Below, in pieces: positions 37,467 to 44,190 of a DNA stretch of 44,943 nt. A program made the position numbers and the translations under genes. How positions within the stretch are numbered: the stretch's first letter is position 1; each line of letters opens with the position of its first letter. The DNA is from Capsulimonadales bacterium (GTDB taxonomy: Bacteria > Armatimonadota > Armatimonadia > Armatimonadales > Armatimonadaceae): positions 1 to 44,943 of the forward strand of contig JANRLW010000035.1 in assembly GCA_033762295.1 (NCBI GenBank), in the 5' to 3' direction. Under the pieces are notes generated by a model, which saw only the letters and a program-made list of their open reading frames with translations, was not told the origin of the DNA and did not search any database.

Positions 37467-38150
37467 ATGCCTGCCGCGACCCGCTTTGTGACCCTCAGTT
37501 TCGACGACGGTTTTCGGACGTCGTCCGTCCGGACCGCCGAACTGTACGAACGGTTCGGCCTGCGCGCGGAGTTCCATGTCGTCGCCACCTACGGACTTCG
37601 CGATCCGGTCACCTTCGGCGACTGGGCTCTGTGGAACGATCTGGCGGCGCGCGGCCATGTTATCCACCCCCACGGATACGACCATACCAACAAGACGAGC
37701 CTCCCGACGGAACGGGCGCAGGATTCGATTCTGCAATGTCTGGAGGAGTTTCAGGCCCACCTGCACGGTTTCGATCCGGCGCAGGCGATCTTCGCGTTTC
37801 CGTACAATGCGTCCACTCCGGAACTCGAGGCATGGCTTCCAACCGTCGTAAGGGCGTTCCGGACCGGCCACACCGCGCTTAACCCCCTGCCGTCCGCAGG
37901 CACGGTGCGGCTGACGACCGGCGGATGGGAGGACGCCGAACCGTGGCTGGATCGGTGTACCGAGGACCTTCTGGCCCTGAACGAAGGCTGGCTCATCTAC
38001 TGTGCGCACGGCCTGGACGGCGAGGGTTGGGGGCCGTTGCGACACGACTATCTCGAACGTCTGCTGGAAAGGCTGGTCGCGACGGAGAACCTGGAAATAC
38101 TGCCGGCCCGTGACATTCTCCGCCGCTTCGATGCCGCTCCGGAAGCCTAG
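37467..38150 (+). CDS. Polysaccharide deacetylase family (CE4-like) protein
   Basis: LSFDDG, HGYDH and FAFPY. Confidence 0.85.
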   Translation: MPAATRFVTLSFDDGFRTSSVRTAELYERFGLRAEFHVVATYGLRDPVTFGDWALWNDLAARGHVIHPHGYDHTNKTSLPTERAQDSILQCLEEFQAHLHGFDPAQAIFAFPYNASTPELEAWLPTVVRAFRTGHTALNPLPSAGTVRLTTGGWEDAEPWLDRCTEDLLALNEGWLIYCAHGLDGEGWGPLRHDYLERLLERLVATENLEILPARDILRRFDAAPEA

Positions 38151-38836
38151 TCGGCTTCCAGCGCCTTGCGGATCGCCGCCTCCACCGTCGCCGGACGGAC
38201 TTTCCCGGACCAGGCGTCGATGATCCGCCCGTCGCGCACCAGCAGGACGGTCGGCAGCGATTTGACGCCCCACTGTTTCCAAACGTCGCCCGAATCGATG
38301 AGCATCGGGTAACTGAACCGGGTCTTGCTTTTCGCCAGGAAGGGCGCGACCTTTTTTGCGCCTTCCTCATCGATGGAGATGCCGACCACGGAGAAACGCC
38401 CGTCCGCGCCGAGCCGTTCGTGCAGTTTTTGCAGTTCGGGCATGGCTTTGACGCACGGTCCGCACCAGGTCGCCCAGAAATCCACGAGCAGCACCCGGTT
38501 TTTCATCAGTTGCTCCGACGTGATCGTCTCGCCGGCAACGGTTTTCAGGGCGAACGCCGGGGCGGGCCGGGGCAATGGGGCGGGCAGGTAGGCGTCCGGA
38601 TTCTTGACGAAGGCATCGATCTCCCGTCGGTTGCAGAAGTAATAGGTCTTGCCTCCGTACGCGACGCCGCCCGCCGGTTTCTCCTCGCCATGCTCCTCGC
38701 CGCCCTGGGAGCAGACGAGGCAGACGGCCTTTTTCGGCAGATTTTCCCGGACCATGACCGGGCGATCCTGCGCCCGCGCCATCGTGGACAGCGAACACAG
38801 GCAGGCGGCGGCGATGGCCGCTCCGATTTCTCTCAT
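38147..38836 (-). CDS. Exported TlpA-family redoxin with N-terminal YHS/TRASH metal-binding domain
   Basis: Signal peptide; CLVC...YGGKTYYFC...FVKNPDAY (YHS); DFWATWCGPC and LPT (TlpA). Confidence 0.88.
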   Translation of the reverse strand: MREIGAAIAAACLCSLSTMARAQDRPVMVRENLPKKAVCLVCSQGGEEHGEEKPAGGVAYGGKTYYFCNRREIDAFVKNPDAYLPAPLPRPAPAFALKTVAGETITSEQLMKNRVLLVDFWATWCGPCVKAMPELQKLHERLGADGRFSVVGISIDEEGAKKVAPFLAKSKTRFSYPMLIDSGDVWKQWGVKSLPTVLLVRDGRIIDAWSGKVRPATVEAAIRKALEAD

Positions 38837-38848
38837 GATCGTTCCCTT

Positions 38849-39538
38849 TCAGAAGTTTTGCGCGAAGGCGAACCCGATTCGCCGATTGAACGGCGCCACC
38901 AGCGAAAAGGAGCGGCCCGTTCCGTCGAACCAGGAAAGCGTCGTATGACCGTATTTGCCGTCGCACATCGGAATCAGCACCAGGTCGTCTCGCAGGGCGA
39001 CGCTCGCCCCGAACGGCACCAGCACCTCACGCCCCCATTCCGAGTAGGACAGCCCGATATACGGGGCGAATCGTCCGCTCTCCCCGCCGATCTGTTTCTG
39101 GGCGGTGACGAAATAGGCCATTCCGGACGGGGTTCCGATCCGGTCGCTGGAGAACCCGGCCACGATTCCGGGGCGACGGTCATCTTCCGTCCGCACGAAC
39201 CAGTTGCCGATAGGATTGGCCTTTTCTTCCGGCGCGAGCGGATTGTACTCGATCCCGAGTTGCAGACGCGGCGAGAGCCGCGCCGACAGAGTCGTGCGCC
39301 AGCGGGGCCGTTCCTGCCGGGTATCGGCATAGCGCTGTGCGAACTGCCATCGTCCCTGAACGCCGCTCGCACGGAGCGGCGACCCTTCGCCGGGTCAGCC
39401 CGTTCACGGGGGAAGGGTCGACCGCAGTCGGTCTCGCTCATCGGGTCCCTGAGCGAACGCGGCGACGGGCAGCAGGAAGACACCGCCGAAGGTAACGAGA
39501 ACGACGGCAACGACGGCAGGACCGGACATGGTCCGCAT
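38849..39538 (-). CDS. Predicted selenoprotein (229 aa): signal peptide, UxxU motif (Sec45, Sec48), beta-barrel-like domain ending in Phe
   Basis: GAGG RBS and ATG 39538. In-frame TGA at 39404-39406 and 39395-39397 (CCG TGA ACG GGC TGA CCC). The same frame then stays open to 38849, with alternating beta-strand patterns and C-terminal FAFAQNF. Confidence 0.72.
39361..39381 (-). promoter_or_regulatory. Candidate bacterial SECIS hairpin
   Basis: mRNA CGCCGCUC-CGUGC-GAGCGGCG: 8-bp stem, loop with GU. The loop starts 21 nt after the second UGA and 30 nt after the first. Confidence 0.55.
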
Positions 39539-39570
39539 GGTTTTCCTCGGGATGCGGGGAGCGAAAGACG

Positions 39571-39915
39571 TCATTTGCCGGAGACGAAGGCCGCGATCCC
39601 GGCAAGGGCTTCGGGCCGGACTCGACAACGGACGACTCGCCCTTGCCGTTCGGTGGTGATCAGGCCCGCCGCTCGCAACTCGTTCAGGTGGTGTGTCAGA
39701 GTGGACGGAGCGCAGGGAACCACACAGCGGATACGGCAGGCGGTCACGCCGCCCGCCCGGTCGTCGTCGCCTTCGGCGTTACAGCAGGTTCCCTGCTCGG
39801 TATCGTAACCGCAGGTCGGCCCGCAGCAACGGATGCACCGGAAGACCGCCAGACGGGTCGGATCGGCGAGCGCCTTAAAGATCGCGGAAAGGTCGAGTGT
39901 GGGTTCGTCGGCCAT
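39571..39915 (-). CDS. ArsR/SmtB family repressor with Cys-rich insertion (10 Cys)
   Basis: FKALADPTRL and STLTHHLNELRAAGLI...RQGR; insertion CIRCCGPTC...GTCC. Alternative start ATG 39918. Confidence 0.92.
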   Translation of the reverse strand: MADEPTLDLSAIFKALADPTRLAVFRCIRCCGPTCGYDTEQGTCCNAEGDDDRAGGVTACRIRCVVPCAPSTLTHHLNELRAAGLITTERQGRVVRCRVRPEALAGIAAFVSGK

Positions 39916-39920
39916 CATTT

Positions 39921-39961
39921 CCTTTCGATGGCTATCGAAATATTCGACAACCATCGAAAGG
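39921..39961. promoter_or_regulatory. Palindromic operator, probably bound by the ArsR protein
   Basis: CCTTTCGATGG-19 nt-CCATCGAAAGG inverted repeat built from two imperfect TTCGA-N6-TCGAA palindromes; it overlaps the -10 and the RBS. Confidence 0.75.
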
Positions 39962-39987
39962 TTATCATGCCTCGCCGGGTTTGTCCA
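39959..39987 (-). promoter_or_regulatory. Sigma70 promoter of the arsR operon
   Basis: TGGACA-17 nt-TAACCT with extended TG on the minus strand. Confidence 0.6.
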
Positions 39988-43101: not shown

Positions 43102-44190
43102 ATGAATAGGGCCGTTCGCAGGGAGTTCGTCGCCTCCGCAATCATTCTGGCGATTCTGGGCGCAGGCTCAACGTCGTACGCGCAGGCGGTCATCCGCAAC
43201 CAGACGACGTACAACAGCTTGACGGCGATCGCCGGCAACAATCCGAACCAGTCGGATGTCACCGGCAATATCCTCACCCTGACGGGACACGGGGTCGAAC
43301 CGCTCAAAAACGTTCAGACCGGTCCGGCGGCGTATGCGTTCCGCTTCGGCAGCGACGGCACCACGGACGGTTCCGTCGATCCGGCGTTGGGAACGGCCAA
43401 TGTCGGCAACAATACGCTGTCCACCATTCTCATTGCCGACGACCTCTGGCTTCAGGCGGACACGACCGGTCTGGGCAGCGCGCGGCTGGCATCGGTCAAC
43501 CTGACCGGCATGCAGTTTCTGTTGAGCAATGCGAACGCGGAAGCGATCACGGTCAATGCCCATGTCCGCCTCTACGACACCCTGGCGACCGGTTTTGCCG
43601 GAGACCTGGTCGGTTCGTACGACCTCGGCGCGGTCACGCTGAACGGCAACGGCGGCGGCTACGCCAGCGTCACCCAGTTAAGCGTCCCCTCCTCCTCCTT
43701 CGCTCTCGATCCGGTGTCGCTCGCCGGTTCGACCTTCGATCGTGTGAGTGCGGGGAGGTATGAAAAGCGTATCTGGGCCGGTCTTTTCTTCACCGCCGAT
43801 GCCACGACAACCACAACCACCCAGTTGTCCAACATCGGTTCGGTCGTCTTCGACCCGAACACGGCGGTGCTTTCGGAAAACGTCTCCTCGAAAGGTACCT
43901 TCTTCGATGTCGGTCGCAGCAACGATCAGATCGTCGGGGACGATATCAGCGGGGCGAACAACGGTCCTCAGGTGAACTTTTCCTATACACAGGACTTCGA
44001 CGAGCTTTTCTATACCTCACTGTTCAAAACCTGGTCGCTCGATACGAACAACCAGGGTCAGGGTCCGGAGGCGAACTTTGCCTGGCTTTTCCGTGCCGAT
44101 ATTGTCATCACGCCGGAACCGGGAACTGTCTCTCTGCTGATTCTGGGCGCGCTTCCGGCGGCGATCCTGATTCGCCGTCGCCGCCGCTGA
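43102..44190 (+). CDS. PEP-CTERM sorting-domain surface protein
   Basis: Signal peptide; C-terminal TPEPGTVSLLILGALPAAILIRRRRR. Confidence 0.92.
   Translation: MNRAVRREFVASAIILAILGAGSTSYAQAVIRNQTTYNSLTAIAGNNPNQSDVTGNILTLTGHGVEPLKNVQTGPAAYAFRFGSDGTTDGSVDPALGTANVGNNTLSTILIADDLWLQADTTGLGSARLASVNLTGMQFLLSNANAEAITVNAHVRLYDTLATGFAGDLVGSYDLGAVTLNGNGGGYASVTQLSVPSSSFALDPVSLAGSTFDRVSAGRYEKRIWAGLFFTADATTTTTTQLSNIGSVVFDPNTAVLSENVSSKGTFFDVGRSNDQIVGDDISGANNGPQVNFSYTQDFDELFYTSLFKTWSLDTNNQGQGPEANFAWLFRADIVITPEPGTVSLLILGALPAAILIRRRRR

Follow-up and report, generated by a model that had tools for sequence, protein, structure and literature searches.

The minus strand of the window (the whole 44,943-nt stretch of DNA analyzed) contains, at 38849–39538, a 229-aa read-through frame that very likely encodes an outer-membrane β-barrel with two selenocysteine (Sec, U) residues. 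The frame runs from an ATG at 39538 to a terminal TGA at 38851–38849, and its sole interruptions are two TGA codons, at 39404–39406 (position 45) and 39395–39397 (position 48), both on the minus strand. The initial annotation had described two ORFs sharing one frame and split by two TGAs three codons apart, and retranslation agreed, with the frame open to its terminal stop. The good ribosome-binding site it proposed is the GAGGA at 39544–39548 (minus strand), and its signal peptide was recovered, by eye and with a hydropathy rule, as a probable export signal covering residues 1–29 (39452–39538, minus strand). With TGA read as U, the product starts with a hydrophobic leader that ends in AFA followed by Q, continues through PPUTGUPGEG, and finishes in a strand-rich domain whose last residue is Phe.

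The next gene (38147–38836, minus strand) begins 12 bases past the barrel stop and encodes an exported protein in which a YHS/TRASH-like domain (CxxC...YFC) is fused to a TlpA-type thioredoxin (WCGPC). The YHS score of this partner, 22.7 bits, is below the Pfam cutoff of 30.3. Upstream of the barrel gene, at 39571–39918 (minus strand), lies a gene for an ArsR/SmtB metalloregulator with a Cys-rich insertion (NF033788, 63.5 bits; cutoff 55); the listed ORF starts at 39954, and we place the start at 39918 or 39915. An inverted repeat with 27-nt arms that are 81% complementary spans the ArsR start (39913–39969) and is likely the ArsR operator. No match to a sigma-70 promoter was found. Elsewhere in the window, positions 43102–44190 (plus strand) encode an exported protein that presumably ends in a PEP-CTERM-like tail.

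UGA had been called a normal stop in this organism, and the genome bears this out: 953 of its 1910 long ORFs (shadow ORFs included) end in TGA. A CTT-TGA-C site also occurs at window position 2291 (plus strand), followed by a +1 frame that we recognize as RF2-like; we take the site to be the prfB programmed frameshift.

Conservation of the Internal UGA Codons

When 41 related genomes were searched, 14 were found to carry the gene, and chance or sequencing error was dismissed because all 19 matches from these 14 genomes share the same two TGAs. Both TGAs are also kept in a second copy of the gene on another contig (C21) of the same genome. A scan of GTDB located relatives in at least 598 contig stretches. 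In the best 80 of these, TGA-x-x-TGA was present at 80/80 loci, as the variants USGU (45), UTGU (20), USAU (8), UVGU (4), and UAGU (3), and the closest named matches were from Armatimonadaceae. The hosts represent at least seven named phyla, including Armatimonadota, Poribacteria, Eisenbacteria, Acidobacteriota, Latescibacterota, Gemmatimonadota, and Deferribacterota. One carrier is labeled "uncultured Cytophagia" (L092) and has both the UxxU motif and SelA; Sec use is uncommon in Bacteroidota, and the label, or a possible transfer, deserves a look. In metagenomes, the best 80 of 548 confirmed matches gave UxxU in 79 (77 by pattern and 2 by eye), and the one other match ends at a contig edge. 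The total over the best 80 loci of each scan is therefore 159/160, in sets that comprise the matches nearest the query and so over-represent its own subfamily. No relative of the barrel was found in the viral contigs searched.

The terminal stop codons of the 159 loci served as a control. These were TGA in 91, TAA in 40, and TAG in 23, with 5 loci truncated; the internal codons were always TGA and never TAA or TAG. An in-frame start and a hydrophobic leader were located upstream of the TGAs in 150 of 155 scorable loci, and in three of the other five, which are YHS fusions, the start falls outside the searched window. Two loci (L068 and L085) belong to genomes marked as unpublished, and the conclusions are independent of both.

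Counterparts with Cys at one or both positions were identified. A profile search of 1.84 billion protein representatives gave 314 matches, of which 150 were listed, and the pattern among 264 gathered proteins was CxxC in 8, WxxW in 2, and CxxW in 1. Cys-bearing motifs include CAGC, CPIC, CPLU, CPGU, and UAGC, so that Cys occupies the first position in CxxU and CxxC homologues and the second in UxxC and CxxC homologues; a CAGC protein matches the barrel across the motif (E = 8e-29). Within Armatimonadota, the barrel profile found matches in 54 of 301 genomes, and most of the matches were read, giving UxxU, CxxU, UxxC, and CxxC forms in two subfamilies (four weak matches had no motif or no retrieved sequence, and one was cut at a contig end). 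The homologue comparison on which the initial annotation had staked its proposal thus came out in its favor, with TGA at both positions, conserved flanks on both sides, and Cys in other homologues. Three proteins have W at Sec positions, and one of them clusters at 90% with truncated proteins from Poribacteria, whose genomes have TGA at both motif positions. The probable origin of the W forms is gene calling that assumed a TGA=W code.

A quick tree of 79 barrels, rooted at the midpoint, gathered the seven CAGC rows into a single long-branched group within the UxxU groups, which hints at reversion from Sec to Cys. A divergent subfamily (L110, L005:2284, L152, and L160–L175) carries UPLU, CPLU, CPMU, or CPIC; it has no YHS-TlpA neighbor, and in most of its members the SECIS is off the common register.

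A SECIS-Type Hairpin Within the Coding Sequence

Downstream of the two UGAs, the minus strand can form a SECIS-type hairpin (39362–39380) with a 7-bp stem and a 5-nt loop, CGUGC, that contains G then U; the calculated energy is −12.4 kcal/mol, and the distance to the loop is 30 nt from the first UGA and 21 nt from the second. The accessible text of PMC13188914 gives as consensus a loop of 3–9 nt, a stem of 4–16 bp, a G in the first two loop positions, a distance of 16–37 nt from the UGA, and an energy of at most −7.5 kcal/mol. The hairpin agrees with all of these values, with the loop G at the second position.

Pairing was then scored in 84 distinct sequences, hand-picked from 109 UxxU segments. 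Six stem pairs were formed in 97.8% of cells, compared with 39–60% in slid controls, a score that is favored by the derivation of the structure from the same sequences. Five of the six pairs showed compensatory change, with 63 cells altered on both sides, and this was seen in 0/500 shuffles. All six pairs were intact in 100 of the 109 segments vs. 7% after synonymous recoding (the encoded peptide varies), and the loop G was kept in 106. None of the three CxxC segments caught by pattern had all six pairs, and the folds of further CAGC forms agree; among CxxU paralogues, a hairpin occurred at the same register in 3 of 13. Taken as a whole, the UGA region of 62 nt did not fold with unusual stability (z = −0.73), and the case for a SECIS is carried by covariation. 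Since the segment PGEGSPLRASG is constrained by the SECIS, its conservation says little about function.

Co-occurrence with the Selenium Machinery

The sel genes by which the initial annotation had set store (selA, selB, selC, and selD) were all found in the host genome, including one tRNA-Sec, and the host selD (L023, contig C128) itself has an in-frame TGA inside a CAGUASK motif. At the family level, selA was present in 14/14 carriers, and nine genomes with no strong selA match also had no barrel gene. Across Armatimonadota, selA was found in 157 of 301 genomes. Among genomes of this phylum with U forms, 41/43 have selA; in the remaining two, which are 86% and 92% complete, selB scores above the cutoff. 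Four selA-negative, 98%-complete genomes that hold the family contain CAGC or CPIC only, and the three of these that were checked for selB and tRNA-Sec had neither above the cutoff. Outside Armatimonadota, 50 of 62 carrier loci were checked: SelA was detected for 47, the SelB wing domain for 41, and either for 48, with both unseen in the remaining two (G333 and G360; completeness not given). No P value was assigned to the co-occurrence because related genomes are not independent. A selenium-metabolism operon beside the barrel gene is not conserved; selB is nearby in three related loci only, some 2 kb past the cassette (L032, L036, and L037; L036:6708–8609).

Collectively, the genomic sequences indicate that the two internal TGAs almost certainly encode Sec. 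Conservation of the codons over at least seven phyla and covariation in the SECIS uphold the initial preference for a UxxU selenoprotein over two nonsense mutations.

Predicted Fold and Position of the UxxU Motif

The barrel proposed in the initial annotation was borne out by structure prediction. Two AlphaFold models, computed with U as C, had pLDDT values of 78.1 and 85.6 (pTM 0.81 for the second) and contained twelve main strands between residues 64 and 229 (38852–39349, minus strand), in keeping with a 12-strand outer-membrane β-barrel. Hydropathy alternates in most strands, and the terminal Phe to which attention had been drawn earlier is F229, kept in 95%. Omp85 genes are present in the host genome. 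The top structural matches are all 12-strand outer-membrane barrels (KdgM, FapF, COG4313, and autotransporters) with Z scores of 15–17; these are tied, so no single 12-strand family is closest. The values were Z 16.5, rmsd 2.7, and 155 aligned residues for KdgM (4pr7); Z 15.8–16.8, rmsd 2.6–2.7, and ~170 aligned residues for FapF (5o65); and Z 15.7, rmsd 3.0, and 163 aligned residues for COG4313 (4rl8). No PDB chain matched the barrel by sequence, and weak Pfam matches were obtained for 2 of 62 members (DUF5777, E = 3.6e-4; OMP_b-brl, E = 4.5e-3). Near-invariant residues are R69, E97, D132, R133, Y160, D193, and H198.

In the second model, mature residues 10–200 align with FapF 88–406, a range that includes the FapF plug helix A89–G101; the placement was read from the first and last aligned residues of the structural match. 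In FapF, this N-terminal plug enters the pore from the periplasm, as described in the accessible text of PMC5557850. The alignment suggests that the UxxU arm may likewise lie in the pore, in a part of the model with low confidence (pLDDT ~53 for mature residues 11–20 and <50 for residues 20–30).

Association with YHS/TRASH Domains and Metal-Related Genes

A YHS/TRASH-TlpA gene follows the barrel gene in 94 of the 129 loci with enough DNA (53/73 from GTDB and 41/56 from metagenomes). It is missing in the other 35, Poribacteria included, where the neighbors are unrelated. YHS domains are also fused to the barrel itself, in UxxU and CxxC forms, which ties the YHS domain and the barrel to the same process. 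Fusions with one or more YHS/TRASH domains, in both UxxU and CAGC forms, were observed in L067:92–991, L130, L134, L140, L143, L144, L202, L203, P0166, P0179, P0182, P0189, and P0191. The accessible text of PMC4626032 describes a YHS domain that acts as a copper sensor.

Neighbors in 145 loci included ArsR (13), heavy-metal-type P-type ATPases (8), TolC-type proteins (6), and efflux adaptors (4). The ArsR, efflux, and short Cys-rich neighbors recur mostly in Armatimonadota, whose members are not independent; one locus (L106) has a full RND efflux set and an HMA gene. An inverted repeat over the ArsR start was seen in the three loci examined (the window, L105, and L106). The Cys-rich insertion in ArsR has nine Cys residues, replaces the usual middle helix region, and is kept in Armatimonadaceae homologues. 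The second copy in the same genome is part of a cassette (L105:537–5066, contig C21) with a UTGU barrel, YHS-TlpA, and ArsR, the last accompanied by a perfect inverted repeat of 23 nt; this cassette also contains a 52-aa Cys-rich metallothionein-like ORF, a third, divergent barrel that carries UPLU, and three Cys-rich ORFs that look exported and match nothing in Pfam. The YHS fusions, together with ArsR and the metallothionein-like and metal-efflux genes, suggest a role in handling soft metals.

Discussion

The recoding and the fold are well supported, and each functional step is one that we infer. On balance, the exported selenoprotein probably catches a soft metal at its pore with a selenolate pair and passes it to the YHS-TlpA partner. 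In the proposed sequence of events, SelB bound to the single hairpin within the coding sequence would deliver Sec to both UGAs, the use of one SECIS being itself presumed. After export and signal cleavage, BamA would insert the predicted 12-strand barrel in the outer membrane. The UxxU arm, joined to strand 1 at its periplasmic end by a flexible 15-residue linker, might then fold into the pore in the manner of the FapF plug. There, the selenolate pair would capture the metal, Cu(I) in the first place, with Ag, Hg, Cd, and As as further possibilities, and the ion would be handed to the partner's YHS/TRASH domain; the TlpA domain of the same protein may keep the selenolate pair reduced. In some lineages, ArsR could turn the operon on under metal stress.

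The main competitor is a redox device, in which a diselenide would form a redox-operated gate, or would serve as an electron relay from periplasmic TlpA to the cell surface and partners there such as oxidants, disulfides, or selenium or sulfur compounds passing the pore. The CxxC spacing and the adjacent TlpA with WCxxC fit this reading, as does the predominance of thiol-type oxidoreductases among characterized bacterial selenoproteins (PMC13188914), and the conserved polar residues R69, E97, D132-R133, and H198 suggest a specific small solute. We consider it unlikely, although a serious contender: the barrel is fused to YHS/TRASH and not to thioredoxin, its neighborhood in Armatimonadota consists of metal regulators and exporters, and a conserved selenium-metabolism operon does not adjoin the gene. 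The YHS fusions, the metal-related neighbors, and the copper-sensing precedent for YHS therefore lead us to prefer a pore site for soft metals to a redox gate or relay. A different decoding of the UGAs, by a SECIS-dependent tRNA-ReC that reads one or both as Cys and yields CxxU, UxxC, or CxxC, has a precedent of sorts, because the accessible text of PMC13582414 reports tRNA-ReC-like genes in 5/5 Armatimonadota genomes that encode UxxU hydrogenases and cautions about Cys decoding; Cys is also tolerated at both positions here. We judge it improbable, as the host genome (94% complete) has one credible tRNA with a UCA anticodon, one ordinary tRNA-Cys, and one SelB, and neither a tRNA search of it at relaxed settings nor a pattern search turned up a second UCA tRNA above noise.

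Slightly further down the scale of likelihood is a selenium-dependent translation switch in which the residues themselves matter little. Because both UGAs precede the entire barrel, only a short leader would be made when selenium is lacking; a switch would need one UGA and no fixed spacing, however, and the replacing residue is always Cys and no other. Artefacts of one kind or another are highly improbable, even though the database products of 130–170 aa begin after the UGAs and three proteins have W. A pseudogene was rejected on the retention of TGA-x-x-TGA across phyla while the terminal stop varies, and, like sequencing error, it is at odds with covariation in the SECIS. The use of TGA as an ordinary stop in this genome, and its presence in the Poribacteria genomes, led to rejection of a UGA=Trp code. 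The conserved start and leader upstream of the TGAs speak against an independent downstream gene, which was discarded; the annotated starts after the UGAs are inconsistent (products of 141–170 aa) and have no signal peptide. A broader picture may be sketched, tentatively and with some doubt: a hitherto undescribed envelope system in hundreds of species from diderm phyla that have received little study. It would be a selenium-gated metal channel whose pore is plugged by the protein's own diselenide/selenolate arm, which a periplasmic TlpA-TRASH partner opens or loads, with Sec prevalent and probably ancestral and Cys rare and derived.

The family of outer-membrane barrels with two Sec residues is real, widespread, and, it appears, uncatalogued. 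The UxxU barrel matched no family model in Pfam or NCBIfam 20.0 (E up to 1 for the protein in NCBIfam), and comparison of 103 family members with NCBIfam gave a best E of 0.004, in one member. None of the 119 selenoprotein families in Table 1 of the 2026 review PMC13188914 matches; for entries that have no model, archaeal Sec.1/Sec.2 among them, the comparison was of name and motif only. No prior description was found in the literature searched, subscription papers and supplements aside; the accessible texts of PMC9312934, PMC12013277, and bioRxiv 10.1101/2022.07.06.499078 contain no such protein. A barrel that pairs YHS/TRASH-TlpA with selenium was likewise not found in the literature searched. 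The initial annotation had predicted that standard pipelines would miss the gene, and the public proteins examined are indeed truncated "hypothetical proteins"; that first reading included neither the SECIS nor the YHS-TlpA partner, and it did not reach the metal-related surroundings or the wide spread of the family. The RefSeq protein WP_184204005.1 of Armatimonas rosea begins immediately past the position of the motif. A large selenoprotein family, with relatives in at least 598 GTDB contig stretches, has thus been overlooked by annotation. With its two UGAs nine bases apart, it is also a small natural system in which to ask if a single SECIS serves both, which the accessible text of PMC13582414 leaves unsettled.

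The 12-strand channels KdgM, FapF, COG4313, and NanC and the autotransporter barrels share the predicted fold with the UxxU barrel, at 8–14% identity. To our knowledge, none of them has a Sec or a CxxC arm. YHS/TRASH domains with TlpA-type thioredoxins, another known element, are present in the partner gene and the fused forms. Sec is extremely uncommon in transporters, according to the accessible text of bioRxiv 10.1101/2022.07.06.499078. Two cases of Sec in an outer-membrane barrel are the GSU2204/MtrB-PioB family (NF041027) and the TonB-dependent receptor FCYXU (NF049945; PMC13188914, Table 1). These have one Sec each, in contrast to two here, and there was no NCBIfam match to them in the 103 members. 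Both are also much larger barrels. The UxxU motif is listed for a Prx-like family (PF00578), a metal-binding family (NF041115), and the FmdB family (TIGR02605) (PMC13188914, Table 1), and occurs in Group 4 [NiFeSe] hydrogenases (accessible text of PMC13582414). All of these share with the barrel two UGAs three codons apart, one downstream SECIS, and homologues with Cys, CxxU, and UxxC variants. The known UxxU proteins are soluble redox, metal-binding, or enzyme domains, whereas the protein described here, which does not match their models, places the motif on a predicted outer-membrane barrel.
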